Positions 21,024 through 64,000 of a stretch of DNA of 64,000 nucleotides are shown piece after piece. The notes below the pieces were generated by a model. The model saw only the letters and a list, made by a program, of their open reading frames with translations, had not been told where the DNA came from and searched no databases. Position numbers and translations under genes: made by a program. This DNA is from an uncultured Parcubacteria group bacterium. GTDB taxonomy: Bacteria; Patescibacteriota; Patescibacteriia; UBA9934; CAMTUG01. The DNA is taken from the NCBI GenBank assembly GCA_947084965.1, contig CAMTUG010000004.1, positions 87,490 to 151,489 on the forward strand, given 5' to 3'. Each line of letters begins with the position of its first letter. Positions within the stretch are counted from its first letter, which is position 1.

Positions 21024-21812
<789 letters not shown>

Positions 21813-41145: not shown

Positions 41146-41167
41146 GGGTGCACACGAGTGTGCAGAA

Positions 41168-41200: not shown

Positions 41201-41328
41201 AACTTTTCCCAGCGCACCATAGGCACACCTCGTGCGGGTGTTGGAGAATGGCCTGTGAAGGCGGCAGTTGACCGCCGTAAAACCAAACAGAAGCGTTGGA
41301 TGCTGACCAACATTTCTGAATCACTTTT

Positions 41329-41691
41329 ATGCCAAATGCCCCGAGTCATGATGTCACTCCGATCGAATCCGATTTTCCATCCGTTCCGAGCGTCCAGTAC
41401 GCGGGTGGGTTCGTCGAATTCGCACTGTGGTACGCGACGCCAAAGGTCGATCGCAAGCATAAAACGCAGAAGGCGTTTGCGGAATCAGTCGGAGTCTGCG
41501 AGGACACTCTCACTGACTGGAAACATAGACCGGAGTTCTGGCCGACAGTGCAACAGTTCATCGCGGAGCGCATGCGTGAACGTATTCCTGACGTGATCAA
41601 CGGACTATTTATCAACGCGTCCCATACGGGTAAGGCCTCTGACGTGGAGTCCTTCCTAAAAATCGCTGGGATCCTAAACCTTAAACGATAA
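41329..41691 (+). CDS. Hypothetical phage-associated small protein
   Basis: 120 aa, tightly coupled (4-nt gap) to the ParB-methyltransferase gene. Confidence 0.4.
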   Translation: MPNAPSHDVTPIESDFPSVPSVQYAGGFVEFALWYATPKVDRKHKTQKAFAESVGVCEDTLTDWKHRPEFWPTVQQFIAERMRERIPDVINGLFINASHTGKASDVESFLKIAGILNLKR

Positions 41692-41694
41692 CTT

Positions 41695-42957: not shown

Positions 42958-42964
42958 CCACCAT

Positions 42965-43711: not shown

Positions 43712-43715
43712 TCGT

Positions 43716-44228
43716 ATGCCGAAGAAAACAGAAGCGTATCCCGCGAACACCAAGCGGATCGACGCGCAGAAGAAGCTCCTGCTCCAGCACATCGAGAAGA
43801 CGCCGATCGTCGAGGTCGTGTGCCAGAAGGTCGGCATCGGACGCACGACCCTCTATCGCTGGCTACACGAGGACGAATCGTTCGCTAAGGAATATGGCGA
43901 GGCCTTCGGCACCGGGGTCGATCTCATCAGCGACCTCGCGGAGTCGAAGCTCATCGGGAAAATCCAGGAGGGCGACATGACAGCCGTGAAGCTCTGGCTC
44001 GGCACACACCGCAAGGACTTCGTGAACAAGCTTGAAGTGAGCGCGACCAGGCAGGAAGAGATGACCGAGGAAGAAAAGAAGTTGATCGAGGCGGCGCACG
44101 CCCGGCTCGGCCTGATTGCACCACCGACAATTATTAACCCGCAACCATATGTCCAACCAATTCCTAGACCAGAAAACGATGAACTTAATTCTAAGCAACA
44201 AGGCGGCGAGGCTCATGCTCGTGAATAA
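43716..44228 (+). CDS. Terminase small subunit-like HTH protein
   Basis: The position (5' of TerL, overlapping it), size (170 aa) and HTH (GIGRTTLYRWL) fit a small terminase subunit. Confidence 0.5.
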   Translation: MPKKTEAYPANTKRIDAQKKLLLQHIEKTPIVEVVCQKVGIGRTTLYRWLHEDESFAKEYGEAFGTGVDLISDLAESKLIGKIQEGDMTAVKLWLGTHRKDFVNKLEVSATRQEEMTEEEKKLIEAAHARLGLIAPPTIINPQPYVQPIPRPENDELNSKQQGGEAHARE

Positions 44229-45924: not shown

Positions 45925-47266
45925 GCGTCGCCCAGCTCGCGGATGCCGTGCCGCCTTCGTGTATGGCGAGATTGTTGTAAGAAAGCTCGGGACACATGAC
46001 AGGAAGAACCTTCTTGATCGACGCGCTGCCGCCGAAGCGGGAGTCGACGTAATAGCCCTTCTTCACGATCATCATCAGATCGTAGATGCGATCGTTCACG
46101 CTCGCCATGAAGTCAGCGAACTCGGGCAGGTGCTCTCCAATCTCCGCGTTGCGCGATGCCTCGAACCGCGCGTTCCAAACGATCACGCTTCCGACGTCAC
46201 CGATATGTTTCTTGAGGGACTCCGCGACCATCGGCGCGGGGTCTTTCATTTCATCGGCGAGGAATTCGTAGTGCTCAGGATCAGCTTCCGGCTCGCGCAT
46301 GACGTGGACGGAATATTGGAACACGGCGTGCTGGTACGGTCGGTAGTCGTCGAAGAGCGGCACTGCCGGGAAATACGTTTCATAGTCCAAAAAGTAGAGC
46401 GGGTACTGCAAACTATCGAAGTCAGACTTGATCGCATCCTTATCAATCGAAAGAGTCGGCGTGGCCTTCGTGCCCGGCAGTTTGATATCTCCAAGTTCGG
46501 CCATGACGTCGGCCGGAACTTGGTCGGGCTTGATAAACCCGCGTTCCAAAAAGGCGACAAGCTTCTCTTTCGGAAGCGATGCGGCTATGGAATACTTGTC
46601 GTCGCCGTTCAGCTCGGAAAAATAACAGGCAAGGAACTCGCACTCCGCTGGGTCGTTGCAGGACATGACGTGCATGAGGCGCGGCACCTTGTCCCAGTCG
46701 AGGACTGCGAGGGCGCGTGGGATTTCTTTCTTCGCCATCGGCATGACGTTTTCGACCTCGTGCGTTATGTCTACCTTGGTAAACAATTGTCCCGGATCAA
46801 TCTCGCCGTTACGGACGTACTGATTGTTGACGTGGACAAGAAACGTACGGGAGACGCGGATGCCAGCCTCCTCAAGGCAGATGCGTTGGAAAGCGACGTC
46901 TGTGATGTGCTCCTCTTTTACGTCAGTGGAACTCTTCACTTCGTAGATATCCCACGAGCCGTCGGCATTCTTCGTAAGGATGTCGCAACGGCAAGAAAGC
47001 TTAGCCGTCATGAACGTCGGCTGAAGCAAAATGGTCGCGCCGCTCGCGATTGCCTTCTTGGTGTTCTCAGCGGCCGGCTTGCCAAACCCATCAACGTTCA
47101 CGCCGCTTGGAAAGAGCTTTTGCGCCCACGCGTCGATTACGTTTCCCTCATCGAAGATGCGTTGGAGCGCAGGATCAGTGGGTGGAACCAAATCCGGCCG
47201 TTGCTTCACGAGCCACAGCTCGCACGAGCATCGGAGAAATTGCATGAAGTTGGATTTGGAGAGCAT
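45794..47266 (-). CDS. DUF2779-like protein (RecB/PD-(D/E)xK nuclease-related)
   Basis: N-terminus MLSKSNFMQFLRCSCELWLVKQRPD fits the DUF2779 pattern (LSKSxF...C..LWL). Its 3' end overlaps the TerL 3' end convergently by about 130 nt. Confidence 0.5.
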   Translation of the reverse strand: MLSKSNFMQFLRCSCELWLVKQRPDLVPPTDPALQRIFDEGNVIDAWAQKLFPSGVNVDGFGKPAAENTKKAIASGATILLQPTFMTAKLSCRCDILTKNADGSWDIYEVKSSTDVKEEHITDVAFQRICLEEAGIRVSRTFLVHVNNQYVRNGEIDPGQLFTKVDITHEVENVMPMAKKEIPRALAVLDWDKVPRLMHVMSCNDPAECEFLACYFSELNGDDKYSIAASLPKEKLVAFLERGFIKPDQVPADVMAELGDIKLPGTKATPTLSIDKDAIKSDFDSLQYPLYFLDYETYFPAVPLFDDYRPYQHAVFQYSVHVMREPEADPEHYEFLADEMKDPAPMVAESLKKHIGDVGSVIVWNARFEASRNAEIGEHLPEFADFMASVNDRIYDLMMIVKKGYYVDSRFGGSASIKKVLPVMCPELSYNNLAIHEGGTASASWATLTNPDLPSEQKSQLRKNMLDYCGLDTYAMVSIFQKLSLVASQD

Positions 47267-47275
47267 AGTCGGATG

Positions 47276-49438
47276 TTAAAGCTTGGTGAGCGCGTCACGC
47301 ACGAGGTCGCGATACTCGTCGCGGATGCGATAGTTATCCTTCCGCGCACCCGGGCGGTCGTGCTCGAGGTCGTAAATCAGGATGGCGCGGAGGTGGGCGT
47401 TGTTCGGGTTCGTCACGAACTGCGAGATGTTGCTGAGATATCGGCCGGACTGCCCGACATCCTTGCCGATGCCATTCACGTACAGGCTATCGCGAAGCTC
47501 CTCCTGGGTAAAGCCGCGATTGTCCGAAAGCAGGGTTTTCAGGAAGACGATAAGGCGCGGCGTGAGGTCGCTCACGCGCTCAAGCGTCTCCTCGAGCCTG
47601 TAACGGATGTCGTCGGTCGTGAGGACGTCGACCGGCATCTCCTCGCGCGTATCGCTTTCGTCCTTGGCGTACGAGGCATCGATGTCCTCGGCGGTAAGGT
47701 GCCAGGCTTCGACAAGTGAAGAGATTATTACCTCGGTGCGTTCTTGAATAACGGTTGGAGTCCATGAATCGTAATCCACGACCTCCTGCGTCATGCGGAA
47801 GGCGGAGAGGCCGTCCCTGTTCGTCTCGCCGCGATAGATCTTCACCTTCTCGGCGAACGGCTTGTTGGAGGCGGATTGGTTCTTCGACTTCCGGCTCTCG
47901 TCCATGCTTCCGGCGAGGAGCGTGAGGTTGCCGAGCGTATTCACGAGCGAGTCGTGTTCGTCCTCGGTGAAGTTTGCCGACCAAGACGGGTCGGTCATCG
48001 TCTGCGGCAGGATGTGCTCGAGCTGGACATTCTTCGTGAACGGGATCTCGCGGATCACCGAGTCGTCGAGGAGCGAGTACTCGTACTTGGCGAGCGCGTA
48101 CTTGCCGCAGCTCGCATGGTAGACGTCGCCGCGCAGGTTCTCCGTCGCGTCGCGCACGACGCGGTTCTTGCGCAGGAACGTCTCGAGCCGCGCGAGGATG
48201 GCGTCGACGGGCTGGTTCGCGTTCGCGTCGCGCACGGACGCGAGAAGCGGGGCAAGCACCCCGCGCGAGGTGTGTCCGGCGACGAGCGACAGTCCGCAGA
48301 ATCGCTCGATTCCCTCGATCAGCGTTCCGGCATTCTGTTTGGACAGTCCGTTTCTCCACGCGGCGATGATGGGCGGAAGCCAGTATCCGTGGCCGACGTT
48401 CCATAAAAGAAGCAAGGCCTTCTTGGCGGAACCGTTAAGGGGCTCGCCATGCCACGCGCCAGCCTTCAGTTCGACATACGCATCGACGGACTTCTTCCAG
48501 TCGTCCATGAACGTTCCCGTCGACAGACCAGCGTCCTTGATGTCCTCGGAGATCTCGCGGAACAAGTCCTTGCGCGAGCGGTCGCCGACGACGGCGATGC
48601 GGTGGAACCGCAGGAGGTCGTCCATTGGCACGCCGACCCGCTCGATCTCGCGCCATGTGTCTAGGAATGGTCGCTTCTCGTCGTCGAAGGACTTCCGCGC
48701 CGTCGGATGCTCGGCGTTATGGCGCGTGGTTTCTTCCTCAAGGCGTCGGATGAGCAGGTTCTTGAGCAGGTCCTTCGTGTCCAAGTCCTTGCCGCGCGTG
48801 TTGATCGCCTCGAAGATGGTGTACGCCGACGAAAACGAGTCGCTCGTCATCACGACAAGCATCACCTCGTCGAGCAGGAAGTGGTAGAAATCGTCGAGAT
48901 ACGTCATGATGTCCACTTCCGCATTCTTTGACTTCAGCTCCTCGCTCTTCTCGTCGATGAATTGTTTGAGAAGCCGGATCGCCATCTTGTACGTCTCGGG
49001 GAGGGCGGATCTTTCGTAGCCGGAAAGAACGCCGACGGACTTCAGAATATTTGCCTCGAACGCCGCGCGCTCCTCGGGCTTCACGCTCAGGCGGCACTTC
49101 CCGCGAATGATGCAGCTCTCCTGAATCTCGTTCGCGCGGTCGGGAAGATCTCCCTCAAAGAAAAAATCACGGAGCACGGCGAGGAGAATCATGGTCGTCG
49201 TCAGGCGCTGTCGCCCGTCGACCACCTCGAAGTCCTTACTGTCCCCGCGATTGACCAGAATCAGTTTGTCCAAAAAGTATCCGTCCTCCTTGCGCTCGTA
49301 GGCTTTGGTGAGATCCATCCAGAAGTCCTCCACGTTCTCCATCGTCCACTCGTAAGGGCGTTGGTAGTCGGGAATATTGTAGTAATTGCCGCCGGCGACG
49401 ACTTCGCGCATCCGACAGGGCTTGGCAGTGATGTTCAT
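47276..49438 (-). CDS. GmrSD-family type IV (modification-dependent) restriction endonuclease, DUF262 + DUF1524, with an extra C-terminal domain
   Basis: DUF262 motif VVDGRQRLTTT (DGQQR variant) and DUF1524 His-Me finger region NVQLEHILPQ. Confidence 0.75.
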   Translation of the reverse strand: MNITAKPCRMREVVAGGNYYNIPDYQRPYEWTMENVEDFWMDLTKAYERKEDGYFLDKLILVNRGDSKDFEVVDGRQRLTTTMILLAVLRDFFFEGDLPDRANEIQESCIIRGKCRLSVKPEERAAFEANILKSVGVLSGYERSALPETYKMAIRLLKQFIDEKSEELKSKNAEVDIMTYLDDFYHFLLDEVMLVVMTSDSFSSAYTIFEAINTRGKDLDTKDLLKNLLIRRLEEETTRHNAEHPTARKSFDDEKRPFLDTWREIERVGVPMDDLLRFHRIAVVGDRSRKDLFREISEDIKDAGLSTGTFMDDWKKSVDAYVELKAGAWHGEPLNGSAKKALLLLWNVGHGYWLPPIIAAWRNGLSKQNAGTLIEGIERFCGLSLVAGHTSRGVLAPLLASVRDANANQPVDAILARLETFLRKNRVVRDATENLRGDVYHASCGKYALAKYEYSLLDDSVIREIPFTKNVQLEHILPQTMTDPSWSANFTEDEHDSLVNTLGNLTLLAGSMDESRKSKNQSASNKPFAEKVKIYRGETNRDGLSAFRMTQEVVDYDSWTPTVIQERTEVIISSLVEAWHLTAEDIDASYAKDESDTREEMPVDVLTTDDIRYRLEETLERVSDLTPRLIVFLKTLLSDNRGFTQEELRDSLYVNGIGKDVGQSGRYLSNISQFVTNPNNAHLRAILIYDLEHDRPGARKDNYRIRDEYRDLVRDALTKL

Positions 49439-49440
49439 AG

Positions 49441-49672
49441 CGAGGGTTAGGTTTCAACCCACGGGCCGCCATGAATACAAAGCGACACCCGGTGGTGACG
49501 AAACCCAACCCCCGTACGGATCGTACGAGTGTTGTTTTAACCGGATGCCGCTCAATGCGTGCGATCCGGATAGGGAAAAATCCCCTGGTAAGGAGGTTGG
49601 GTTTCGTCAGGGCTAGAATAGCTTACAAACACCCATAAGTAAAGTCCTTTTTATGGAGTTTTGAGCCCTTCC
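49441..49672 (-). ncRNA. Candidate structured RNA between the DGR reverse transcriptase and GmrSD
   Basis: A perfect 15-bp long-range stem (TGACGAAACCCAACC / GGTTGGGTTTCGTCA) encloses about 95 nt with nested hairpins, CCGGAT...ATCCGG and CGTACGATCCGTACG. The strand was not resolved. Confidence 0.3.
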
Positions 49673-51130
<1,458 letters not shown>

Positions 51131-51145
51131 GCGCGGAATCAAGCA

Positions 51146-51283
51146 CTTTCGAAGACGGAAGACGAACTGATTGTTCGCATTCCACTTGTTCGTCGGCTTC
51201 GCCCAATTGTTGTTGAGCCACGACCCGTCGTCATTGCGTTCCACGTTGAAGACGTTCGGGTTGCCGTCCGAGTCGGATTGCAT
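51146..51283 (-). repeat. DGR template repeat (TR)
   Basis: About 138 nt homologous to 51596-51735. In the VR frame it encodes ...NVERNDDGSWLNNNWAKPTNKWNANNQFVFRLRK, with AAC/AAT codons where VR varies. Confidence 0.8.
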
Positions 51284-51580
51284 GGCGTGCCACCATTGCC
51301 ACTGCCCGCCTATCTCAAAAGAGGTCGGGCTGTATTTTATGCGTGATCGAAAATCACCAAGCACACCATACCAAGTACTTCATTTTTGTTTGGACACAAT
51401 GCGCATCCTCCGAAGGGAACCGTAGCCACCCTCGTTCTCAACACGCATGTACCGAAAAGGCCTTTGGACAGCCGTAACCGCCCATATGAACCAGTCTAGA
51501 CGCCAGAATAACAAAAATTTTCCGATCCGCCTACGGCGGAAAGTATCAAAGGGTCAAAGGAACAAAGTTTCAAGAAGAAG

Positions 51581-53803
51581 CTAAGACTTCAAGGGTTTCT
51601 TGCGAAGACGGAAAACGAACTGACTGTACGCAGGCCACCCGTACGTCGGCTTCGCCCAATTGAGGCCGAGCCACGACCCGTCGTCATTGCGCCCCACGTA
51701 GAAGACGTGCGGCCAGCCGCCCGAGGCGGAAATTTGCTTCATGCCAACGTACACGTATTCGTTCATCGGCTGATTCGCATATTGCAGACGGAACTGCGGG
51801 CCTACTTCCGGCGGACAGAGTTCAAGGCCTAGTTCTTCCGCTCGGGCATAAATCTGATCCGTCGTGGCTCCGCTCGGGAACCCAAGGTCTTCGACGCGAA
51901 GGCGAATAAGCGTCGCTTCCTCCGGAGATTTGATCTTCCACTGTTTCCAGTCCGGCTGATTCTCATCCGGTTCTCGGAGAGATCGCTTGAAGTCGTCATG
52001 CTCCAACATCCATCCCACGTAGTCAAAGCGGTGTCCATTTTGCGTAAGAAAACTTTCTAGTTCACGTTCATCCTTGCCACCAATCTCAATGTTCTGGCGG
52101 GGGATTTTTCCTTCAGGGAAGGAAGTGTATACGTTCTCCACACCCTCGGGGAGACGGTCGAAGATGCCGGGATCGAGTTTGCCGACGTAGGCTTTGGTCG
52201 ATTCGTTGATTTGATCGACCGAATGGGCAATTTGGCTTTCGTCACACTCGAAGACAACAAGGATATCCTCGTCAGTATTTCGCTGACCACGAAGCTCCGC
52301 GACGCGTGGATCCTTATCATAACCGAAACCCTCGATAGGGGTGTCGATTTCGTAGAGGAACAGGAGGTCGTTTTTTGTGAGAGGTTTACCAACGACGGTT
52401 TTTTGTTCAATGAGCGTTAGAAGCCGCATATCCCCGGCCTTCTTCTCGTAAGCCGCGCCGTCCGGGAATTCTTTCATCTTTGCGCCGACGACCGGAGCGA
52501 TATGCGGATCAAGGTTTTGGTCGGGGGCGATACCGCGAACTTCGGCGATCTTGTCGCCTTCCATGCGGATGGCGGCGCGAGGGATGCTGTTTGCGCCGTC
52601 CTCGTCTTGCGAATAGTAGACGTAAAAATCACCGCGGGAGAGTTGAGATTTCGCCACCTCCTCTCCGGCGGTACACCAACCCGTCTTGTGGCGTTCGATG
52701 GATTGAACCAGCTCGGTTGGCTCAGAGCCTTTGTTGTACTTTATCCATTGTCCGGCGGTGTTATGAAGAAGCGTTTCACTTGTGGGAATGAGCTTGGCAA
52801 ATTCAAGGGCATAGAGTCTGGCAAAGTCCTTGGCATCCAAGGCTTGTTGAACTTCTGGTTCAAGATTGCGATCGTCGACAGGGGTTTCAATTTCAAACGT
52901 CGACGGATCAAATGGAGCCATGTCCAAATCCGCGATGATTCTTTCACGATCAACGGGTACGGTCGGATGTTGTTTCTTCGCTTGCGCAATCCTTTGGCCA
53001 ATAACAAGCTGGCGCTCCTTGTTATGCTTTCTTTCCGCTCGTTCCAACTCTTCTCTAGAAGCGGCAAGGCGCTCCTTGTACACACGATCATGCTCCACGT
53101 GGTCACGAACCTTTCCAAGAACGGCTTGATCCAATTCCGGGAACGGGTTCATGGTCTCTTCGTCCCTGGACGGAAAGACCTTGGTGTCTTTATCAAAGCT
53201 GGAAAGCCCGGTGACGCTTCTCATTGCCCAATACCTGAACCAGTCCGGATAGGCGGCTTGAGCGTCGTCGGTTGCCAGATAGTCGATCCATTTATCCAGT
53301 GATCGTTTTTGATCGTCGATCTTGGCGACGATTTCTTCCACCATCTGCTTTTGTTCGTTCTCAAAATCTTGAATTTCGTCCTTGATGTCCGACCCTTTGG
53401 CGCTGGCTTCGACCGCACGCGCGATCTGATCGCGAACCTCGTCCGGAATTTCCGTGTCCCCGTGTCCCAAGGCACGCGCTTGTTTTTGTTGGTGACCCAA
53501 ATATTCGTCGGTGGCGACGTTAGGCTTCACGATAAGCGCGTCGTGCATGAAGCGCTTCATCATGGAAAGATTGCGCTCTTTGCGGTCGAAATTCTCGTGT
53601 CCTTCGAGTTTGGGAGGGTTCAAAATCGTATCCAAGCGTCCAAGATAAGCCTGGATGCGTTCTTCGGGGGTATTGCGGACGCGAGAACCCTTGCGCTCCC
53701 GCGCGGCAACGGCGCGCTCGACATCCTCGGTTTTTTCCACTTGGTACTTTTGCCTGAGAAATTCAGGATTTGATCCATTTTCCATATGGGGGAATGGTAG
53801 CAA
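51581..53803 (-). CDS. DGR target (variable) protein, 740 aa, no signal peptide or TM evident, C-terminal VR
   Basis: C-terminus ...SASGGWPHVFYVGRNDDGSWLGLNWAKPTYGWPAYSQFVFRLRKKPLKS. The N-terminal about 600 aa have no recognised motif. Confidence 0.8.
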   Translation of the reverse strand: MLPFPHMENGSNPEFLRQKYQVEKTEDVERAVAARERKGSRVRNTPEERIQAYLGRLDTILNPPKLEGHENFDRKERNLSMMKRFMHDALIVKPNVATDEYLGHQQKQARALGHGDTEIPDEVRDQIARAVEASAKGSDIKDEIQDFENEQKQMVEEIVAKIDDQKRSLDKWIDYLATDDAQAAYPDWFRYWAMRSVTGLSSFDKDTKVFPSRDEETMNPFPELDQAVLGKVRDHVEHDRVYKERLAASREELERAERKHNKERQLVIGQRIAQAKKQHPTVPVDRERIIADLDMAPFDPSTFEIETPVDDRNLEPEVQQALDAKDFARLYALEFAKLIPTSETLLHNTAGQWIKYNKGSEPTELVQSIERHKTGWCTAGEEVAKSQLSRGDFYVYYSQDEDGANSIPRAAIRMEGDKIAEVRGIAPDQNLDPHIAPVVGAKMKEFPDGAAYEKKAGDMRLLTLIEQKTVVGKPLTKNDLLFLYEIDTPIEGFGYDKDPRVAELRGQRNTDEDILVVFECDESQIAHSVDQINESTKAYVGKLDPGIFDRLPEGVENVYTSFPEGKIPRQNIEIGGKDERELESFLTQNGHRFDYVGWMLEHDDFKRSLREPDENQPDWKQWKIKSPEEATLIRLRVEDLGFPSGATTDQIYARAEELGLELCPPEVGPQFRLQYANQPMNEYVYVGMKQISASGGWPHVFYVGRNDDGSWLGLNWAKPTYGWPAYSQFVFRLRKKPLKS
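51596..51735 (-). repeat. DGR variable repeat (VR) at the 3' end of the target gene
   Basis: It differs from TR at about 24 positions, almost all of them TR adenines in the coding sense (for example AAC to GGC, CTC, TAC, CCT, TAC, AGT). There are 2-3 non-adenine differences. Confidence 0.8.
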
Positions 53804-54391
53804 AAAACGGGAAGATCGTGTAGTCGGAATAGGAGCAGGCCTAAGCTTCCAAATTTGAAGGGTTTGTCGGGCTTTTTAAAGCCTAGACAACCCCAACCAT
53901 TGTGGCATTGATGTGGGGGGAACTATGAAGAATCCACTCGAGCTTACGGTCAATTTAGAGGCGTTTCAGCTCCCGGAAGGGTCTGTGATGACTTCGAAGG
54001 AGGTAACAAAGGAACTCGCCTCCCAGTAGAGGCCATACTGACCGCGACGCTTTTTCGATGCAACGGAGGGTTTGTGACGGTTATCACCGCAGCCAACAGA
54101 CGGCTCAACCTGAAGGCGGTGATGCACGAACTCGACAACAACTGGGTAACGTATCCCAATGAAGATGAGTGGGGGTGATCTCGGTGCGGTCGACCGGAAC
54201 AATCCGTTCGGTCTCGCAAGCGATCCGAGGGTCACGACGTTCATTGACGCACTCGTGCTCAAACAAAAAGAAGTCGCGTTTCAGGTGAGTGGGAACCGCG
54301 CCATCAAGGTGGCGATGAACGGCCTCGTTATTGGAACGAGAGCAAAATTGCTTGGTGGAATCTCCTTGCCGAAACGATTTTAATAATCCAA

Positions 54392-54425
54392 AAACGCGAC
54401 CCGTGATGAGCCGCGTTTTGACTGC
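54392..54425. terminator. Bidirectional rho-independent terminator 3' of hsdR
   Basis: AAAAACGCG-ACCCGTGATGAGC-CGCGTTTTT. Confidence 0.5.
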
Positions 54426-54449
54426 TGATGACGAACGATAACAGTCGCA

Positions 54450-57400
54450 CTAGAACCTCCCGCCGGATATGTCGAAGAACCGCTCGAAGAATCCCGTGAG
54501 CTTGCTCAATACGCTTTCTCGCTTTTGCGTGCGCTCTCCCGACGGAGAGAAGCGAGATACAGGAGGTAGGACTTTCGTGATCGCTGTACCTGTTGTTGAC
54601 ACGACCCCGTCTCGGAACGCATTTTGAATGAATTTATGTGTCGCTTCCGGATCGAGATTTTCCTGTTCAATAATTTGATCAAGTTCCTCGATCTTTTTCT
54701 CCTCGACGAACTTGTGCCAATCCTCGTCAACGATCGAATGCACATCAAGAGAGGTAATGAACTTGTTAATGAGATCCTTCTTGTTACGTAGTTCAATGCT
54801 CGAATCGATGGCCTTGTTGATGTCCGCCAGGATCTCCCGATTCTTCGTGTGGTCTTCGTGATATTTTTTGATCAATCCGAGAACGTAGTCGATGTTAATC
54901 TCAACCTGCTTAATCAATTCCATCTCGAACACGAGATCGTCGTTGATGTTTTCCTTCTCCGCCTCGTCGCTCTTTCGGAACTCATGGTAGAGGTCGATGT
55001 ACAGGCTGTGATAATCCTGAACGTCGCGCTCGGTAAGAATTTCATTCCCCGTAAATTCATCGAAGGCGGAGAGAATGTTTCGTACCCGCAGAATCGCGCC
55101 GTAGAGCTTGATGAAGTCCTTTTGCGCCTGCTCTCCCACGATTTCTTCTCCGATAGGAAACTTCTGACGTAACTCATCAACGAGGCTCTGATATCCACGC
55201 ACTTCTTTTTCTCCGTCACGGTATCCGTTGTAGTAGTCGACGTACGATTTCAGAAGGACGATTCCGCCCGCTTCCTTGTCGCCGAAAAGCGCGATGGACT
55301 CATTCGTCGCCTTCTCGAGGTTACGGAAGCAGACGATATTACCGAATGTCTTCACGCTATTTAAAATACGATTTGTGCGCGAATACGCTTGTAATAATCC
55401 GTGCAAGCGAAGATTCTTATCCACCCAGAGCGTGTTCAGTGTTGTCGCGTCAAAACCGGTCAGGAACATGTTAACGACGATGAGGATGTCGATTTCCCGA
55501 TCCTTCACCTTTTGGCTGACATCCTTGTAGTAGTTTTGAAACTTATCCGCCGAGGTATCGTAAGACGTCCCAAACATGGTGTTGTAGTCCGCGATGGCGC
55601 TGTCCAAGAAGTCGCGAGAGCTTGCATCGAGTCCACTTGTATCCTCCGAGTTTTCGTCGATCACGCCGTCGGCCTCCTCCTCATTCACGCCAAAGCTAAA
55701 GATCGTTGCCACCTTCAATTTTTGGTCGCTCGGAACATCTGCCAGCTGACGCTTGAACTCCGCGTAATACTTCTTTGCCGCATCAATGGAGGAAACCGCA
55801 AAAATGGAATTGAACCCTGCCAACCGCCGATCTTTCAGCTGGTAGAAGCTGTTGCGCTTGGTTTTCTGGTCGAAGTGGTCGCGAATGTACCGTACAATAT
55901 TCGCCAAACGCTCAGGTGCGGCGAGCACAGCCTCGCGGTCGATATCGTTGACCTTTTTATCCTCAATATCCTCGGCTTCGCGCACGGTGGATACGTAGTC
56001 AACCTTGAACGGCAGGACGTTTTTGTCTGCGATCGCGTTGACGATGGTATAGGTGTGGAGCTTCTCGCCGAAGGCCTGTTCGGTTGTCTTCAGGTCGATG
56101 CGACCGCCCGAGGATGCATTCGCCGCGAAGATCGGGGTGCCGGTGAAACCAAAAAGATGGTAGTTCTTGAACGCCTTGGTAATCGCCGTGTGCATGTCGC
56201 CAAATTGTGAGCGATGGCATTCGTCGAAGATGAGGACGACGTGTCCGTCAAAAATGGCGTGCGCTCCATTGCGGGCAATGAAACGGTCGAGCTTCTGGAT
56301 CGTGGTGATGATGATATTCGCATTCGGGTTTTCGAGCTGACGCTTCAATACCGAAGTGCTCGTATTGCTGTTGGCCGCGCCCTTTTCGAACTTGTCGTAC
56401 TCGCGCATGGTCTGGTAGTCCAAATCCTTACGGTCGACGACGAACACGACCTTATCGACGAAGGACATTTTGCTCGCGAGTTGGGCAGTCTTGAAGCTCG
56501 TCAGCGTCTTTCCGGATCCCGTTGTGTGCCACACGAAGCCACCCGCCTCGATCGTGCCTAGCTTCTTATAATTCGTGCTGACTTCGATACGATTGAGAAT
56601 CCGCTCCGTGGCAACAATCTGGTACGGACGCATGACCAGCAACAATCGGTCGGTGGTAAAGACGCAGTAACGCGTCAAAATGTTGAGAAGCGCGTGCTTG
56701 GCAAAAAAGGTCTTGGCGAAGTCCATCAAGTCGGTGATCGGTCGGTTCGTGGCATCCGCCCACCAGCTCGTGAATTCAAAGCTGTTGCTCGCACGCTTGC
56801 CTTTCTTAACACCGCCCTCACTTGATTCCTTGATGTGCTGCTTTCGCGTGGTGTTGCTGTAGTATTTCGTGTGCGTCCCGTTGGAAATCACGAACAGCTG
56901 GACGTATTCAAACAGTCCGGCGGACGCCCAGAAACTTTCGCGCTGGTATCGGTTGATCTGATTGAAGGCCTCCTGAATGGCTACACCCCGGCGCTTCAGC
57001 TCGACGTGGACGAGCGGGAGGCCGTTCACGAGAATAGTGACGTCATAGCGGTTCGCACGCTGGCCGTCCTCGGTCGCATACTGATTTATGACTTGCAGGC
57101 TATTGTTGTGGATGTTGTCCTCCTTGAGGAGATAGACGTTCTTCGTCGTGCCGTCGTCGCGGATAAGATTCTTGACGTAGTCCTCCTGAATGGTCGCCGT
57201 CTTTTCCTCGATGCTCTGATTGGCGTTTGCAATTTCGGTAGTGAAAAATTGCTTCCATTCCGTATCAGTGAACGCAAAGCCGTTGAGCTTTTCAAGTTGC
57301 TGGCGCAGGTTGGCAACCAATTCCTCTTCCGACGTGATGGTGACGTAATCGTATGCCTGCGTTTTAAGCTGTTCAATGAACGCACGCTCAAGTTCCGCCT

Positions 57401-57503
57401 CGCTCTGATAGTGGGCGACGCGCTTTCCGTCCGGCGTATATTCAGCCACCACGGTGCTCTGCGCACTTTCGGCAACGAGATTGTATTTCTTAGGCTTCGG
57501 CAT
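54450..57503 (-). CDS. hsdR: Type I restriction enzyme R subunit
   Basis: 1017 aa with Walker A TTGSGKTLTSF and DEAH-box FDECHRSQ. Confidence 0.9.
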   Translation of the reverse strand: MPKPKKYNLVAESAQSTVVAEYTPDGKRVAHYQSEAELERAFIEQLKTQAYDYVTITSEEELVANLRQQLEKLNGFAFTDTEWKQFFTTEIANANQSIEEKTATIQEDYVKNLIRDDGTTKNVYLLKEDNIHNNSLQVINQYATEDGQRANRYDVTILVNGLPLVHVELKRRGVAIQEAFNQINRYQRESFWASAGLFEYVQLFVISNGTHTKYYSNTTRKQHIKESSEGGVKKGKRASNSFEFTSWWADATNRPITDLMDFAKTFFAKHALLNILTRYCVFTTDRLLLVMRPYQIVATERILNRIEVSTNYKKLGTIEAGGFVWHTTGSGKTLTSFKTAQLASKMSFVDKVVFVVDRKDLDYQTMREYDKFEKGAANSNTSTSVLKRQLENPNANIIITTIQKLDRFIARNGAHAIFDGHVVLIFDECHRSQFGDMHTAITKAFKNYHLFGFTGTPIFAANASSGGRIDLKTTEQAFGEKLHTYTIVNAIADKNVLPFKVDYVSTVREAEDIEDKKVNDIDREAVLAAPERLANIVRYIRDHFDQKTKRNSFYQLKDRRLAGFNSIFAVSSIDAAKKYYAEFKRQLADVPSDQKLKVATIFSFGVNEEEADGVIDENSEDTSGLDASSRDFLDSAIADYNTMFGTSYDTSADKFQNYYKDVSQKVKDREIDILIVVNMFLTGFDATTLNTLWVDKNLRLHGLLQAYSRTNRILNSVKTFGNIVCFRNLEKATNESIALFGDKEAGGIVLLKSYVDYYNGYRDGEKEVRGYQSLVDELRQKFPIGEEIVGEQAQKDFIKLYGAILRVRNILSAFDEFTGNEILTERDVQDYHSLYIDLYHEFRKSDEAEKENINDDLVFEMELIKQVEINIDYVLGLIKKYHEDHTKNREILADINKAIDSSIELRNKKDLINKFITSLDVHSIVDEDWHKFVEEKKIEELDQIIEQENLDPEATHKFIQNAFRDGVVSTTGTAITKVLPPVSRFSPSGERTQKRESVLSKLTGFFERFFDISGGRF

Positions 57504-58644
57504 ATTCTTTGAAAGTCAGGAGTTTCTCCCGGTAGTACTCATACTGTTTGCGCCGAGCGGCGAGCTCTGCTGGAAGACCGACGGAGATGTCATTCACAAG
57601 TGCGTCGAACTTGTCGAGAATCGATACGATGCGTTCTTGTTGGGCAAGAGGTGGGATGGGGATTTGGACAGTCGTTAGTTCTTTTTTATTAACCGCTGGG
57701 ATACTTCCGGTTTTTCTTAGCCCAACAATTGCTGCCTGGATATTCTTAAGATAGTAGTAGACATATTTTGTAAGCAATCCTTCTTTCCGACTTCTGATCC
57801 TGTAACAAAGTGGGCCGCACCAGAAATCTGTTTTTTGATAGCCAACGTGTCCTGCGCCACCCTGTCCCCTGGAAGGAATAGTGATCGTTTCAGCTGGTGA
57901 ATTTTTTTCTGATAGGTAACCGGAAGGTTCATTCCCTGCATTAATAAAAGGAAAGGCATTTACGCCTATAATTGAACTTCTATCAGGTGCTTGACCTGTG
58001 CCAATATCGCAAACCTCACCCAAAGCCGTCCATTCTAGATCCGCATCTAACACTAGAAGTTTCGAACGATAATGTTCGTATTGCTTCTTCCTTGCTTCCA
58101 GCTCTGCTTCCAGCTCTGCTTCCAGCTCTGTGAAAGAGTTTAGCACGCGGACAATCTCTTCTTGGACAGCGACAGGAGGGATGGGGATTTTGATTCGATT
58201 TAAAAAATCAACTGTAATTCCTTTTACTATCGTTCCATTTCCGACAACGTTTATCGTTTGAAAATAATAGGTTAAAAATCTGTTGTTTAGAAATGGTTGC
58301 AATTCAAGCCCGCGCAGATCTTGATTGATCGCAATATCTGTCCCCGCAATTTTCATTTTTCCCGGTGAAATTTTTACAGCAACTATCACGCTACCCTTTG
58401 GAATCAAGTGACTTGAGCTGTCTTCCAGTCCTTCTTTGGTAATGAAATTTCTAGTTGCGTGAATTTCAATATTTACGTTGGAAAGATCTCCAACTGAAGC
58501 CCATGGGATATCACCGTTCCAATAGCTTAATCTAGACTTAGATGGAGTTCCGCCTCCAATATTTCTAATAACACATTCGCCTAATGGTTTGAATACGACC
58601 CCATTCGGGCAGAATTGAGCAATTAATTTTTCAATCTTACTCAT
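57490..58644 (-). CDS. hsdS: Type I restriction-modification specificity subunit
   Basis: Two target-recognition domains separated by conserved helices (LEAELEAELEARKKQYEHYRSKLL and LAARRKQYEYYREKLL). It overlaps hsdR by 14 nt. Confidence 0.85.
   Translation of the reverse strand: MSKIEKLIAQFCPNGVVFKPLGECVIRNIGGGTPSKSRLSYWNGDIPWASVGDLSNVNIEIHATRNFITKEGLEDSSSHLIPKGSVIVAVKISPGKMKIAGTDIAINQDLRGLELQPFLNNRFLTYYFQTINVVGNGTIVKGITVDFLNRIKIPIPPVAVQEEIVRVLNSFTELEAELEAELEARKKQYEHYRSKLLVLDADLEWTALGEVCDIGTGQAPDRSSIIGVNAFPFINAGNEPSGYLSEKNSPAETITIPSRGQGGAGHVGYQKTDFWCGPLCYRIRSRKEGLLTKYVYYYLKNIQAAIVGLRKTGSIPAVNKKELTTVQIPIPPLAQQERIVSILDKFDALVNDISVGLPAELAARRKQYEYYREKLLTFKEYAEA
58095..58130. repeat. Tandem 12-bp repeat (GCTTCCAGCTCT)x3 inside the hsdS central conserved region, encoding (AELE)3 on the coding strand
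   Basis: Seen directly; three perfect copies. Confidence 0.85.
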
Positions 58645-58648
58645 ATGG

Positions 58649-60208
58649 CTACTTCGTTCCTTCTATATCACGCACAATTTCATCAATAGAGGTACGGAGT
58701 TCGTTTTGATGCGCAACAATTTTGTCGATCTCTGAATTCAACCTCATTATATCGACAACTTCGCGAATGTCTTCGGCTACGATATAACTTGAAACGGCAA
58801 TATTGTAGTCGTTGTCAGCGACAGCCTGATTATCGATAACTTTTGCGAAGTATTCGACGTCCTTACGGTTCGTGAATGCTTCCAAGATCTTTGCTCGATT
58901 TGTATCACTGAGCTTGTTTTTATTACCGCCGCGCACAAACTCTGAAGATGCGTCAATGAAAAGCGTTTTATTGTCCTTCTTGCTCTTCTTTAATACAATG
59001 ATGCAGGTCGCGATCGTAGTGCCGAAAAAGAGATCGGGCGGAAGCTGGATCACAGCGTCGACGTAGTTATTGTCGACAAGGTACTTGCGGATTTTTTGTT
59101 CTGCGCCTCCTCGGTAAAGGACACCAGGGAATTCAACGATCGCTGCAGTGCCGCTCGTGGAAAGCCACGAAAGCATGTGCATGGCAAAAGCAAGATCGGC
59201 CTTGCTCTTTGGAGCTAACACACCGGCTGGCGCGAAGCGTGGGTCATTAATAAGGAGAGGATTGCCGTCTCCTTCCCATGTAATCGAGTACGGCGGGTTT
59301 GAAACGATGGCATCAAACGGCTCGTCGTCCCAATGTTTTGGATCGGTCAGCGTGTCGCCGTGGGCGATATTGAAATGGTTGTAGTTGATGTCGTGCAGGA
59401 ACATGTTGATACGACAGAGGTTGTAGGTTGTGAGGTTGATTTCCTGGCCATAAAAACCCAGCCGCACATTTTCTTTGCCAAGAACCTTCGCGAATTTCAA
59501 AAGAAGCGATCCAGAACCGCAGGCAGGGTCATAAACCTTGTTTACTTCCATTTTGCCGACAGTCGTGATCTCAGCAAGAAGCTCGCTGACTTCTTGCGGC
59601 GTGTAGTATTCGCCTCCCGACTTGCCGGCATTCGATGCGTACATCGCCATGAGGTACTCATACGCATCACCAAACATGTCGATCGTGTTCTCCGTATAAT
59701 CTCCGAGGCTCAGATCGCCAATCGTTTCCAAAAGCTTAGCGAGCTTTTGATTTCGCTTCTCGACTGTATTGCCGAGCTTGGGCGAATTAACGTCAAGATC
59801 TTGAAACAGGCCGTTCAAATCATCCTCGCTATCAAATCCCTTCGCGGAACTTTCAATGTTACGGAATACTGCGGCGAGCGTCTCGTTAAGATTCGCGTCT
59901 TCCCGAGCCCGTGCGCGAACATTCACGAAGAGCTCGCTTGGCAGAATGTAAAATCCTTTTTCTTTCACTGTGTCAGCCCGACCAAACTCCGCGTCTTTGT
60001 CGGAAAGGGCGGCGTAGTTGAAGCTGGCGGTACCAGCGCGGCGTTCATCAGCATTGATGTAGCTTGTGAGATTCTCGCTGATGAAGCGGTAAAAAAGCAT
60101 TCCAAGCACATACTGCTTGAAATCCCAGCCATCAATGCTCCCTCGCAGATCGTTTGCGATTTGCCAGATAGCGCGATGCAGCTCTGCGCGTTCGTCTTCT
60201 TTGCTCAT
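58649..60208 (-). CDS. hsdM: Type I restriction-modification N6-adenine DNA methyltransferase subunit
   Basis: Motif I DPACGSGSLL and motif IV VSNPPYS. Confidence 0.9.
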   Translation of the reverse strand: MSKEDERAELHRAIWQIANDLRGSIDGWDFKQYVLGMLFYRFISENLTSYINADERRAGTASFNYAALSDKDAEFGRADTVKEKGFYILPSELFVNVRARAREDANLNETLAAVFRNIESSAKGFDSEDDLNGLFQDLDVNSPKLGNTVEKRNQKLAKLLETIGDLSLGDYTENTIDMFGDAYEYLMAMYASNAGKSGGEYYTPQEVSELLAEITTVGKMEVNKVYDPACGSGSLLLKFAKVLGKENVRLGFYGQEINLTTYNLCRINMFLHDINYNHFNIAHGDTLTDPKHWDDEPFDAIVSNPPYSITWEGDGNPLLINDPRFAPAGVLAPKSKADLAFAMHMLSWLSTSGTAAIVEFPGVLYRGGAEQKIRKYLVDNNYVDAVIQLPPDLFFGTTIATCIIVLKKSKKDNKTLFIDASSEFVRGGNKNKLSDTNRAKILEAFTNRKDVEYFAKVIDNQAVADNDYNIAVSSYIVAEDIREVVDIMRLNSEIDKIVAHQNELRTSIDEIVRDIEGTK

Positions 60209-60211
60209 AGG

Positions 60212-61129
60212 CTATTTGTTCAAATCGTAGCTCTGCTTGATAAGTCCGAGCGCGTAATCAAAATCCTGATCCGACTTGATCTTGATCTCGTAATCTCCGT
60301 TGCCCCAATGACCTTTTTTCGGATTGGTGAAATCCGTCGCCCGATGCTCTGGATCGTTTAACTCGCCGCTTTTTACGTTGAGCGTAATCCGTAGTTCGTC
60401 CTTATAGAAGATTACGTCAGCAAAGTTCGTCGTCAGTTTGTAAGCGACGTACATTTTCTTGGGTACTTCGGTTACTTCCTCGTCAAATGCCAAGATCGCT
60501 TCGCGCAACTTCATGAAGATGGCTTTGGTTACCTCGTTCGATTTTTGCACGTGCTCTTCTATAGTGTAATTTTTCTGCAACGGTTCGGCACCATCTGGAG
60601 ATTTCTCATGCTTTGCTTTACGGACAATGCCTGATGTTGAAACTTTGACGCGCTGATAATTTTCCGGCTCGAGATACAAAATGTTGTCATCGTAAATCCT
60701 GTAGCGAAAGAGCTCGATATTGATAGGAAGAAAATCCGCAGTGTCGATGTCGAACTTGTTGTAGCTTTCGGCGACGCAAATCACGCGGGACGAGTCCCAA
60801 TCGACCTCAATAGCAACCGCACGTTCTCCACAGAGGGCTTCAAACTCGGCCTTGTGATCGAGAAGCCAGCGAAGGTACGAGAGGCCTTGGTTGATCACGC
60901 TTTCATTTGTCGACCGTTTGTATTCGATAATAACCGGCGCACCGTTCTTATCGATTCCGAGCGTGTCGATCCGGCCGCCGAAGCTCGTTGAGTACTCGGT
61001 AGCCAAGAACGTGATATTCAAAATCTCCTCAAGATTTTGCTCGAAAAGCCGCTGGAGATCTCGTTCTAGACGGACATCCTTGGCGGTTAGGCGTTTTACC
61101 TTGGTTTGATTGATCTGAAATAAGGCCAT
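60212..61129 (-). CDS. PD-(D/E)xK nuclease-superfamily-like protein co-transcribed with hsdMSR
   Basis: GGRIDTLGIDKNGAPVIIEYKR fits a D...(D/E)xK pattern; 4-nt gap to hsdM. Confidence 0.45.
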   Translation of the reverse strand: MALFQINQTKVKRLTAKDVRLERDLQRLFEQNLEEILNITFLATEYSTSFGGRIDTLGIDKNGAPVIIEYKRSTNESVINQGLSYLRWLLDHKAEFEALCGERAVAIEVDWDSSRVICVAESYNKFDIDTADFLPINIELFRYRIYDDNILYLEPENYQRVKVSTSGIVRKAKHEKSPDGAEPLQKNYTIEEHVQKSNEVTKAIFMKLREAILAFDEEVTEVPKKMYVAYKLTTNFADVIFYKDELRITLNVKSGELNDPEHRATDFTNPKKGHWGNGDYEIKIKSDQDFDYALGLIKQSYDLNK

Positions 61130-61262
61130 AATTGGGTTTTGGATTGGCCTAAGTTTATGCGAAATCAGCGTTTTTGGCTACCTTGTCGCCTAAATGAAGG
61201 GGTTTTCAGGGACTTAGTTACCAACAGCTAGGCGGACTAGACGCCCCGCAGGGGTTGCGGCA

Positions 61263-62636
61263 TTGATGTGTTGTATGAAAAACACACAAGGTGGCGTGAC
61301 GACCCAGGTGGGGATTACACGCACAAAACACGAACAGGACAGGTCGGCGGTTCCAGAGGCCGTTAAGTACTGCCTTTACGCTCGTAAGAGTAGCGAATCG
61401 GCAGAACGTCAGGTTCTCTCGATCGATTCGCAGACCAAAGAAATGTTGCAGATCGCAGAACGTGACGGGCTGAATGTGGTGGAAATCAAGCGTGAAAGTC
61501 ACTCGGCTAAGGCTACTGGCGAGCGTCCGGTTTTTAACGAACTTTTGCGGGATGTCCGTGAGAAAAAGTTCAACGGAATCCTGACGTGGGCACCGGATCG
61601 ACTAAGCCGTAACGCGGGTGACCTCGGAGCAGTAGTCGACCTGATAGACCAAGGACTGCTTGTAGAGATTCGGACGCACGGACAGACATTCAGTAACAAT
61701 CCAAACGAGAAGTATCTGCTGATGATTCTTGGCTCAACGGCTAAACTCGAAAACGATCACCGAGGAGAAAACGTAAAACGTGGGCTTCGCACGCGAGTCG
61801 AGATGGGATTCTGGCCGGGCATGGCACCAATCGGATACTCTGATCAAAACTTAATGGATAAGAAGGGTCAAAAGCTCCTCGATCCTGTGCGAGCACCGAT
61901 CGTAAAGCAGATGTTTGAGAAAGTCGCCTACGAAAAATGGAGCGGACGAAAGCTCTACAACTGGCTCAAGCACGATTTGAACTTCAAGACGCGCGGCAAT
62001 AAAACACTAACGCTCAGTGGTATCTACCGCATCTTCGAGAATCCCTTCTACCATGGGCGGTTCGAGTTTCCACGCAACACTGGGAACTGGTACGAAGGAA
62101 AGCACAAACCAATCATCACGAAGGAGCTGTTCGATCTGGCCCATGTTCAATTAAAACGCGATCAGATCGTGCGGGAGAACAAGGAGTTCGCCTTCACCAA
62201 ACTGTTCACGTGTGGACAATGTGGGTCGGGAATGTCGGCACAAGAAAAGTACAAGCAACGGAAGGACGGTGGCCACACGCGATATGTCTACTATGGCTGT
62301 ACGCGTTCGCGGGATCGCAACTGCACCAATCCGTATATCAGAGAAGATGAGCTGATCGTAGAGCTACTGAAAATCATCGATGAAATCGATATCAACGAGC
62401 TTGGATTGAAAATAAAACTCGAAGAAGAAATAAAACGCTTTAGCCGCTTCGAACGATTGTTCCGTGGTGGAACGTCTGTGCCGGAAGGAACTACAGAGGA
62501 GATGGACGTCCGTGCGTACATGAAGTATCTCCTACGCGAAGGAAGCATGTCGGAGAAGCGAGAATTGCTTGGGAACCTAAGATCTAGACTACTCTGCACT
62601 AACAAACAGGTCTCAGTCATTGATCGAAGCAACTAG
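61263..62636 (+). CDS. Large serine recombinase (resolvase/integrase family)
   Basis: Catalytic region KYCLYARKSSESAERQ, recombinase domain and C-terminal Cys cluster (CGQCGSGM...YYGCTRSRDRNC). The real start may be a few codons downstream. Confidence 0.8.
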   Translation: MMCCMKNTQGGVTTQVGITRTKHEQDRSAVPEAVKYCLYARKSSESAERQVLSIDSQTKEMLQIAERDGLNVVEIKRESHSAKATGERPVFNELLRDVREKKFNGILTWAPDRLSRNAGDLGAVVDLIDQGLLVEIRTHGQTFSNNPNEKYLLMILGSTAKLENDHRGENVKRGLRTRVEMGFWPGMAPIGYSDQNLMDKKGQKLLDPVRAPIVKQMFEKVAYEKWSGRKLYNWLKHDLNFKTRGNKTLTLSGIYRIFENPFYHGRFEFPRNTGNWYEGKHKPIITKELFDLAHVQLKRDQIVRENKEFAFTKLFTCGQCGSGMSAQEKYKQRKDGGHTRYVYYGCTRSRDRNCTNPYIREDELIVELLKIIDEIDINELGLKIKLEEEIKRFSRFERLFRGGTSVPEGTTEEMDVRAYMKYLLREGSMSEKRELLGNLRSRLLCTNKQVSVIDRSN

Positions 62637-64000
62637 AATCTCGTAATGTTCGTGGAATACGGAATCCATCATTTCCAGAAGGTACTGCACATTCTTTTGG
62701 GTTTCAGGAACCAAAGACGGATCAAACCCAGCGCCCGTTATGTGTGACTGATCGTTCGTGTATTTATAGATCGCTGTCTTTTTGTTTTCATCGAAAGTCA
62801 GAGCTTCCATCTTTTTATAAAGCGTCTGATTGCTTGGGACTCTAAACATCAAAAATGTTTCCAAAACCTTTCGGGCGATATTAGGAATATGGTAGACGGA
62901 AGCGATACTTCCATCGGTCTCAAATTGATGCAAAATCTTGAACAAGTAATGATACTCGCTCTCATGGTTCCTTAAATCTTTGTCGAGTTCAGCTAAATAG
63001 GCGGTTCTTCCTTCTGAGGCTGAATACTGATTTTTGATCATGTAATATTTACTCCCACCCGTCTTGCTGAGCCAGTTTAAGATCAACTTCAAAAAATCAA
63101 AATTGTGAGTCAATAGAAAGACCTGCCTCGCGTCCTTTACTGCATTCTTGAGGTAAGCAAACGCTTGAAAAAGAGAATTGGAATCCAAACTAGAGATCGG
63201 ATCATCAACGACGATGATTCCGTTCTCCAGATCAAAATCCTGATCCTTGAGTTGGATAACAAAGTATAGGAAGGCGACTGCCGTCTTTTCACCCTCGCTC
63301 AAATTTTTGGCAAGTATGCCATTTCGTTTTATCAGGTAACCGCCATCCGGAGCAACCTCGAAAACTATTTCGTTTCTTCCAAGAAACGTTCCCAATTCCT
63401 TGTTTAGAGAATCACAGGCTCTGTGTTCCGAAGATATCTTTCCTTTGTTGTCGTTGATTCTTTTCTTCAGTGCCGAAATACCAAGAAAGCTCTCGTCGCC
63501 AGCATCCCCTTTTTCAAGTCGATGGATTTCCTTTGAGGCTGCGGCAATCTCATTGTCCAAAGCCTTCACTTCTTCAAAGATCGTGCTCAAGTGATGCTGT
63601 TTGAGTAGCTCGGCAGCCTTATCCTTCTCTGACTGAAAGTTATCACTTTTTTGGTTGTGTTGATCCACCAACTCATTAAGTGAAGCGACAGCTTCCTTAA
63701 AGTTATTGCTGAGCGACTTGGAAAAGGATAACGACTCGGTCGTCTTTTGTTTTTTGTTGGTCAGAATCTCAACCATCGCTAAAAGCTCAGCGCAAGAATT
63801 CTCCTTCTCTTGGTTGTAAGACATTACCCTCGAGGCGAATTTTGTTTGCAGATCGTTGTAAAATTGCGCCTTGTCGGGCACCTGCCTATTTTGTACAGCT
63901 TGAATGAAACCCTGTAGATGCGTGATCTGGGAGTCGATTCTGCTCTTCAGTTTTTTGTCGGCCTCATTGAAGTGACCAAGAAGCGCCTCGACTCTTCCGG
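62613..64000 (-). CDS. ABC/AAA-type ATPase (abortive-infection/RloA-like), partial; the N-terminus lies beyond the right window edge
   Basis: Signature-like LSEGEKTAVAFLYF, Walker B plus D-loop IIVVDDPISSLD and H-loop LLTHN. The frame stays open from 63881 to the window edge (...GRVEALLGHFNEADKK...). Confidence 0.55.
   Translation of the reverse strand, partial: GRVEALLGHFNEADKKLKSRIDSQITHLQGFIQAVQNRQVPDKAQFYNDLQTKFASRVMSYNQEKENSCAELLAMVEILTNKKQKTTESLSFSKSLSNNFKEAVASLNELVDQHNQKSDNFQSEKDKAAELLKQHHLSTIFEEVKALDNEIAAASKEIHRLEKGDAGDESFLGISALKKRINDNKGKISSEHRACDSLNKELGTFLGRNEIVFEVAPDGGYLIKRNGILAKNLSEGEKTAVAFLYFVIQLKDQDFDLENGIIVVDDPISSLDSNSLFQAFAYLKNAVKDARQVFLLTHNFDFLKLILNWLSKTGGSKYYMIKNQYSASEGRTAYLAELDKDLRNHESEYHYLFKILHQFETDGSIASVYHIPNIARKVLETFLMFRVPSNQTLYKKMEALTFDENKKTAIYKYTNDQSHITGAGFDPSLVPETQKNVQYLLEMMDSVFHEHYEILVASIND

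Follow-up and report, generated by a model that had tools for sequence, protein, structure and literature searches.

Can a type I restriction-modification enzyme acquire a second DNA specificity by the gain or loss of a single 12-nt unit in its specificity gene? This question is raised by a tandem repeat in an hsdS gene located within a 64,000-nt stretch of DNA, in the following designated the window. Precedents are well documented. EcoR124I carries two TAEL units and recognizes GAA N6 RTCG, whereas EcoR124II carries three and recognizes GAA N7 RTCG (Loenen et al., 2014, PMC3874165). The literature hence confirms the initial annotation of the locus, according to which two versus three copies change the spacer in this enzyme pair. 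The change in unit number arises by unequal crossing-over. [quoted passage not shown] How one helix of a coiled coil can be lengthened while its partner stays the same has no structural explanation even for EcoR124II (PMC3874165). In NgoAV from Neisseria gonorrhoeae, 0 to 3 LEAT units are found among strains, and methylation of GACN6TGC versus GACN7TGC tracks the unit number (PMC6789123). In isogenic NgoAV strains, one LEAT unit yields N6 and two yield N7, while the enzyme with zero units is inactive; the LEAT number differs between closely related isolates (bioRxiv 10.64898/2026.01.10.698759). The N6 and N7 motifs for one and two units were read by both PacBio and Nanopore sequencing (PMC6789123; bioRxiv 10.64898/2026.01.10.698759). 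A repeat of four amino acids is regarded as characteristic of type IC HsdS proteins (PMC10030836).

The ELEA repeat and its type IC cassette

Tandem Repeats Finder reports a perfect array with a period of 12 (3.2 copies, 100% matches, 0 indels, score 76), and direct reading of the window letters yields the same 12-nt array. The three tandem 12-bp repeats that had been annotated at 58095..58130 are real: they are this array in another phase. Their unit, GCTTCCAGCTCT, is a phase-shifted version of the in-frame unit GAGCTGGAAGCA, which encodes Glu-Leu-Glu-Ala. Similarly, the peptide originally given as (AELE)3 is a cyclic permutation of the right one, but the exact reading is T-(ELEA)3-R. The (ELEA)3 stretch comprises HsdS codons 173-184 (58093..58128), and translation around the array reads ...EEIVRVLNSFT-ELEA-ELEA-ELEA-RKKQYEHYRSKLL... 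A period-12 self-match over 26 positions is expected 2e-11 times per 64 kb. A two-unit pattern was found nowhere else in the 64-kb window, and 100 shuffles predicted 0 occurrences. With the amino acid repeat taken as given and codons drawn at the frequencies of the four cassette genes, the probability of three DNA-identical units is about 2.5e-4. The protein repeat therefore does not account for the identity of the units at the DNA level. The array provides three identical 12-nt in-frame units with 38 nt of perfect periodicity; misalignment would need at least two.

The hsdS product matches Pfam Methylase_S in two stretches (179.5 bits) and the EcoR124 HsdS chain 7bst_A with 153.5 bits, so that the original hsdS call holds and can be specified as type IC. 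HsdM aligns with the EcoR124 M protein 7bst_D (628 bits) and HsdR with EcoR124I HsdR (879 bits; 2w00/4bec), the latter with 236 bits for Pfam EcoR124_C. The gene order hsdM-hsdS-hsdR is a feature of the type IC (EcoR124I) family. The window genes follow this order (Table 1). They are located on the minus strand as DUF5655-hsdM-hsdS-hsdR and are contiguous or overlapping: the hsdR start overlaps the hsdS end by 14 nt, and the DUF5655 gene lies 3 nt upstream of hsdM. By homology and gene order, the gene set is predicted to be an intact type IC restriction-modification cassette strongly homologous to EcoR124I. The DUF5655 gene occupies the same place in the sister cassettes L082-L087 and L089-L094 (L082, 116..1033; L083, 2581..3498; L089, 1580..2497). 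By position, it looks like a fixed fourth gene of a widely transferred type IC cassette.

Table 1. Coordinates of the repeat, the cassette and neighbouring features in the window
Feature	Coordinates	Strand	Properties and basis
Perfect tandem array, 12-nt unit GAGCTGGAAGCA x3 (3.2 copies)	58093..58130	-	Tandem Repeats Finder, sequence, translation
Central conserved helix of HsdS, residues 158-196, contains the repeat; first strand of the inter-domain coiled coil	58057..58173	-	DSSP on AF2 model
C-terminal conserved helix of HsdS, residues 333-375 (...LPAELAARRKQYEYYREKLL); partner coiled-coil strand	57520..57648	-	DSSP on AF2 model
hsdS, specificity subunit	57490..58644	-	384 aa; two target-recognition domains (about residues 12-157 and 197-332)
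hsdM, N6-adenine methyltransferase subunit	58649..60208	-	519 aa; Pfam N6_Mtase (384.8 bits) and HsdM_N
hsdR, motor and nuclease subunit	54450..57503	-	1017 aa; Pfam HSDR_N, SWI2_SNF2, T1R_D3-like, EcoR124_C
DUF5655 gene	60212..61129	-	305 aa; Pfam DUF5655; PADLOC candidate PDC-S18 (331.5 bits)
Large serine recombinase, divergent, adjoins the cassette	61263..62636	+	Resolvase, Recombinase, Zn_ribbon_recom
AAA_13 ATPase	62613..64000, continuing in contig L001 174..2438	-	754 aa; PADLOC candidate PDC-S06 (519 bits)
Reverse transcriptase	49673..50833	-	putative defence island
GmrSD type IV restriction enzyme	47276..49438	-	putative defence island
Second N6_N4 methylase	42965..43711		putative defence island
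ParB_N-fused DNA methylase	41695..42957		putative defence island
tmRNA gene	31445..31826	+	142.5 bits

An AF2 model of HsdS built on 32 homologues (mean pLDDT 87.3) consists of two globular domains joined by two long helices, and the repeat is situated inside the first. The central conserved region aligns without gaps with residues 152-209 of EcoR124 HsdS. At the repeat, HMMER pairs FTELEAELEAELEARKKQY of the window with FTALTAELTAELNMRKKQY of the EcoR124 HsdS chain from the cryo-EM structures, which places the window repeat at the position of the TAEL repeat; the tetra-residue tandem repeat (ELEA)3 itself is aligned to the TAEL segment. Model helix and alignment both bear out the initial placement in the central helical spacer between the two target-recognition domains. 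The C-terminal conserved region matches residues 304-397 of EcoR124 HsdS (72.6 bits). The central ARKKQYEHYRSKLL resembles the C-terminal ARRKQYEYYREKLL, which agrees with the type IC trait of two similar long-helix regions, and the direct-repeat family D2 links both regions of hsdS. The C-terminal helix contains no tandem repeat.

The window segment FT-ELEAELEAELEA-RKKQY and its counterpart FT-ALTAELTAELNM-RKKQY in the deposited EcoR124 chain are equally long. As the 12 repeat residues of the window are matched by AL plus two TAEL plus NM, the three window units correspond to the two-TAEL length class. By length, the window allele would therefore be of the N6 type and not resemble the three-TAEL EcoR124II (N7). 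The comparison with EcoR124I/II drawn in the initial annotation concerns the same region, but the copy numbers are not directly comparable, as three units in the window equal two in EcoR124I in length. EcoDXXI and EcoPrrI, both type IC, have three TAEL units and N7 gaps and represent the 16-residue class, whereas the window belongs to the 12-residue class.

With EcoR124I, the window locus shares homology of all three subunits, a repeat in the same helix segment between FT and RKKQY and a unit of 12 nt or four residues. It differs in the unit itself (ELEA, GAGCTGGAAGCA, instead of TAEL), in the perfection of the repeat (12/12 residues, versus AL-TAEL-TAEL-NM in EcoR124I) and in its chromosomal, island-borne location. 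In addition, the target-recognition domains are unrelated in detail, so that the half-sites would differ; they have no close counterpart among the characterized enzymes available for comparison. NgoAV has a comparable tetra-amino-acid tandem repeat in the HsdS helix, with LEAT being a near-identical motif to ELEA/LEAE. However, NgoAV also has a homopolymer tract that truncates HsdS, which is absent from the window hsdS, and the repeat of NgoAV is backed by population and methylome data.

Logan assembly contig L001 (run ERR3478686) is identical to the window over 11,352 overlapping bases, including the three units. The array is not an assembler artefact, as both assemblies agree. L001 probably originates from the same sample and was rejected as independent confirmation of the copy number. 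A megablast search of all complete E. coli genomes and PLSDB plasmids for close relatives of the hsdS allele gave 0 matches. The closest HsdS in the protein search was only 54% identical, and the collections searched contain no close relative. While the gene is called on L001, the protein collection lacks an exact copy of its HsdS product. Scanning metagenome contigs for the exact hsdS flanks with a variable gap gave 0 matches; a relaxed clade pattern found one locus, L096, a member of the L083 lineage described below. This means, the collections searched hold one independent sequence of the window hsdS locus, and both of its assemblies carry three units.

Length classes and unit turnover among relatives

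A scan of one genome per species provided 80 type IC hsdS loci. The helix segment, bounded by an F[TS] anchor and R..QY, was delimitable in 65 of them. Among the resulting 66 genes (65 different species and the window), its length always changes in steps of four residues: 12 aa were found in 38/66, 16 aa in 26/66 and 8 aa in 2/66. Similarly, 53 protein homologues with the motif have segments of 12 aa (45), 16 aa (4), 8 aa (3) or 4 aa (1), and the Leptospira alleles among them include one, two and three ELTA units. The 12-aa state of the window is the most frequent one in the family.

Among 164 pairs of units that share their amino acids, 116 share their DNA sequence as well, compared to 3.6 pairs expected from the codon usage of each gene. 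This approximately 30-fold excess was seen in Bacillota, Bacteroidota, Pseudomonadota, Actinomycetota, Patescibacteria and one archaeon, and it points to continual unit turnover across type IC hsdS genes. The nearest relative of the cassette, L082 (HsdM 91% identical), carries (GAGCTGGAGGCA)3, while the window carries (GAGCTGGAAGCA)3. One and the same synonymous change occurs in 3/3 units, while the flanks are only 83-85% identical. Taken together, the 116/164 identity and the L082 change bear the signature of concerted evolution by repeated loss and gain of units.

To follow individual loci, contigs were read for five related HsdM proteins, each of which occurs on several contigs. In the P0124 lineage (HsdM 87% identical), which has the order DUF5655-hsdM-hsdS-hsdR and the flank ...EEIVRVLNSFT as in the window, the 8,560-nt alignment of L083 with L084 contains 0 mismatches and a single gap, which is 12 nt long and lies inside the repeat. 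L083, L085, L086 and L096 have the four units ELET-ELET-ELET-ELEA (L083 HsdS, 416 aa), L084 the three units ELET-ELET-ELEA (HsdS, 412 aa). In the P0162 lineage (HsdM 85% identical), L089 and L092 contain four GAGTTAGAAGCG units and L091 three; L089 and L091 differ by 5 mismatches in 6,560 nt and one 12-nt gap. The three other sister lineages showed no variation, with three units in every contig read. Hence, near-identical loci differ in copy number in two sister lineages (L083/L084 and L089/L091) and not in three others, and copy-number change is not ubiquitous on short time scales. Where it occurs, it is a change between three and four units, matching the two common length classes. Judged from these alignments, a one-unit change appears to arise within the time needed for zero to a few substitutions per 6-9 kb. 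For this reason, the mutability of the 36-48-nt tract would exceed that of an average site by several orders of magnitude. Slippage as proposed for the window locus appears realistic, since close relatives of the cassette differ naturally by precisely one 12-nt unit. Some short-read contigs stop within or at the edge of the repeat (L093, L103 and L104), and scaffold L090 has an N-gap at this place. These features were considered as signs of within-sample heterogeneity and rejected, because k-mer cycles in 4-unit alleles and low coverage account for them just as well.

The sister cassettes L083/L084 and L089/L091 resemble the window in the order DUF5655-hsdM-(hsdS)-hsdR, in the flank (...EEIVRVLNSFT or ...MLDSFT) and in their ELET/ELEA units. 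They differ in having other target-recognition domains and, in the P0162 lineage, two extra genes between hsdM and hsdS. They are metagenome contigs. Extra genes between hsdM and hsdS are present in L089..L094 (P0162), L097/L098 and L101..L104; the insertions are 147-aa and 231-aa ORFs without Pfam match, an SduA_C protein or a RhuM-family protein. Accessory genes seem to insert preferentially at the hsdM-hsdS junction. Thousands of proteins from widely separated phyla share 84-91% identity with HsdM of the window cassette, which indicates that the cassette has been widely transferred. Homologues P0123-P0241 are attributed to Patescibacteria, Roizmanbacteria, Smithella, Chloroploca, Margulisbacteria and many metagenome contigs. 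Such conservation across phyla is unusually high and would imply that this type IC lineage has spread horizontally, both broadly and very recently.

A probable molecular ruler and its alternatives

We consider it likely that the repeat is the length-setting segment, or molecular ruler, of a type IC HsdS, and that gain or loss of a unit would switch the gap length. In the proposed mechanism, the antiparallel helix pair of HsdS would hold the two target-recognition domains apart, and the four-residue units (ELEA x3), for which the perfect 12-nt repeats code, would form part of the central helix. As these repeats are DNA-identical, slipped-strand mispairing or unequal crossing-over could add or remove one of them in frame. 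One unit, i.e. four residues or just over one helical turn, would shift the domains and turn them by roughly one base-pair step. As a result, both the methyltransferase and the restriction enzyme would recognize the same half-sites separated by a non-specific gap that is one base longer or shorter. The likeliest alternative allele would have four units and fall into the 16-residue, EcoR124II-like class with a gap of +1. A two-unit allele with 8 residues would be a less useful product. Few genes of the family have this length, and such an allele may function poorly. From the relatives, we infer that the copy number can change at the window locus and that a unit change would shift the spacer by 1 bp. 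With only three units, the slippage rate is expected to be low.

Assemblers can collapse or expand tandem repeats, and in relatives some short-read contigs stop inside the array, with a run of Ns at this place in one scaffold. A mis-assembled or mis-sequenced repeat number in the window is nevertheless extremely improbable: at 38 nt the array is shorter than a read, and no 31-mer recurs within it. Two different assemblies are identical at every base, the ORF is unbroken, and three units give the segment length that is most frequent in the family. If the number is real, the repeat could still be static, with units that are identical owing to an old or occasional duplication, a copy number that is effectively fixed and no role in specificity. 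That the 12-residue state is the family mode (38/66; 45/53) suggests stabilizing selection on length and would suit this explanation, as would three sister lineages without variation among contigs and the three units in both assemblies of the window locus. On the other hand, a unit DNA identity about 30-fold above the codon-usage expectation across distant taxa and a synonymous change in all three units between the window and L082 require repeated unit turnover. Neither pattern fits a static repeat kept only by protein-level selection. In addition, single-unit differences exist between loci with 0-5 substitutions in 6.5-8.5 kb. We therefore regard a static repeat as unlikely, albeit not negligibly so.

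A changing copy number might also inactivate or relax the enzyme (ON/OFF switching or attenuation) instead of altering its specificity cleanly. The rarity of the 8-aa class (2/66; 3/53), the inactivity of NgoAV with 0 LEAT units (bioRxiv 10.64898/2026.01.10.698759) and the register problem left by lengthening a single helix (PMC3874165) speak for such an outcome. However, the 16-aa class is common (26/66), and the longer state in EcoR124II, EcoDXXI hybrids and NgoAV corresponds to a defined motif with a gap one base longer. Inactivation is plausible for contraction to two units and unlikely for expansion; as the main consequence of copy-number change we deem it quite improbable. ON/OFF phase variation by frameshift is ruled out, as the 12-nt unit is divisible by three and all changes stay in frame. 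Inversion-type (shufflon) switching of hsdS via the adjacent large serine recombinase is ruled out as well, because a second hsdS fragment or inverted repeat is lacking: within 50000..64000, no inverted repeats of hsdS sequence were found, the only pair being 23 nt long with 78% complementarity, and a single Methylase_S gene is present.

The ruler mechanism is textbook knowledge from EcoR124I/II, EcoDXXI and NgoAV, and the window locus adds an example, not a principle. If its copy number changes in the organism, a single lineage could switch back and forth between two specificities of restriction and methylation, one spacer base apart. This would reshape the range of restricted phages and plasmids and possibly alter methylation-dependent gene expression, and it would require no extra genes or recombinase. 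The more useful by-product are the family-wide results, i.e. the strict four-residue steps, the about 30-fold excess of DNA-identical units over expectation and the single-unit polymorphisms between near-identical environmental loci. A published screen for phase-variable type I systems left out repeats divisible by three, which its authors named as a limitation, and for this reason could not see the 12-nt ruler class (PMC7383803). Our results suggest that in-frame 12-nt ruler repeats, omitted by such earlier screens, deserve a systematic survey. Tentatively, and with about as much doubt as confidence or slightly more, we propose that the perfect 12-nt ruler repeats of this clade are actively maintained by unit turnover, and that gap-length switching between 12-aa and 16-aa states is a general, ecologically relevant way of specificity diversification in environmental bacteria.

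Genomic neighbourhood of the cassette

The region 40000..64000, which follows the tmRNA gene, looks like a defence island. Besides two DNA methylases, a GmrSD enzyme and a reverse transcriptase (Table 1), it comprises the type IC cassette, the large serine recombinase and the AAA_13 ATPase. Its GC content is 0.45-0.52, compared to 0.55-0.70 in the rest of the window. This difference suggests that the region was acquired horizontally, possibly at the tmRNA gene. A large serine recombinase is also encoded beside a related cassette of another lineage (L101, 426..1745; L102, 257..1600), and a mobile element with a serine recombinase may be the vehicle of the type IC cassette.

Outside the island, the region 14000..24000 has a composition sharply unlike the rest of the window, with a very high GC content of 0.60-0.70, a strongly negative AT skew and long overlapping ORFs on both strands. 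Its three longest plus-strand ORFs (14756..18178, 18439..20721 and 22145..23656) have no Pfam match. Within the island, a 740-aa ORF (51581..53803, minus strand) has no Pfam or PADLOC match. Between the reverse transcriptase gene and the start of this ORF, two copies of a 132-nt direct repeat (51146..51277 and 51599..51730) are 83% identical and 453 nt apart; they might be a non-coding RNA or a repeat element linked to the reverse transcriptase. The AAA_13 ATPase weakly matches the PrrC anticodon nuclease (41.7 bits), a reminder of EcoPrrI, a type IC system with which PrrC is associated.
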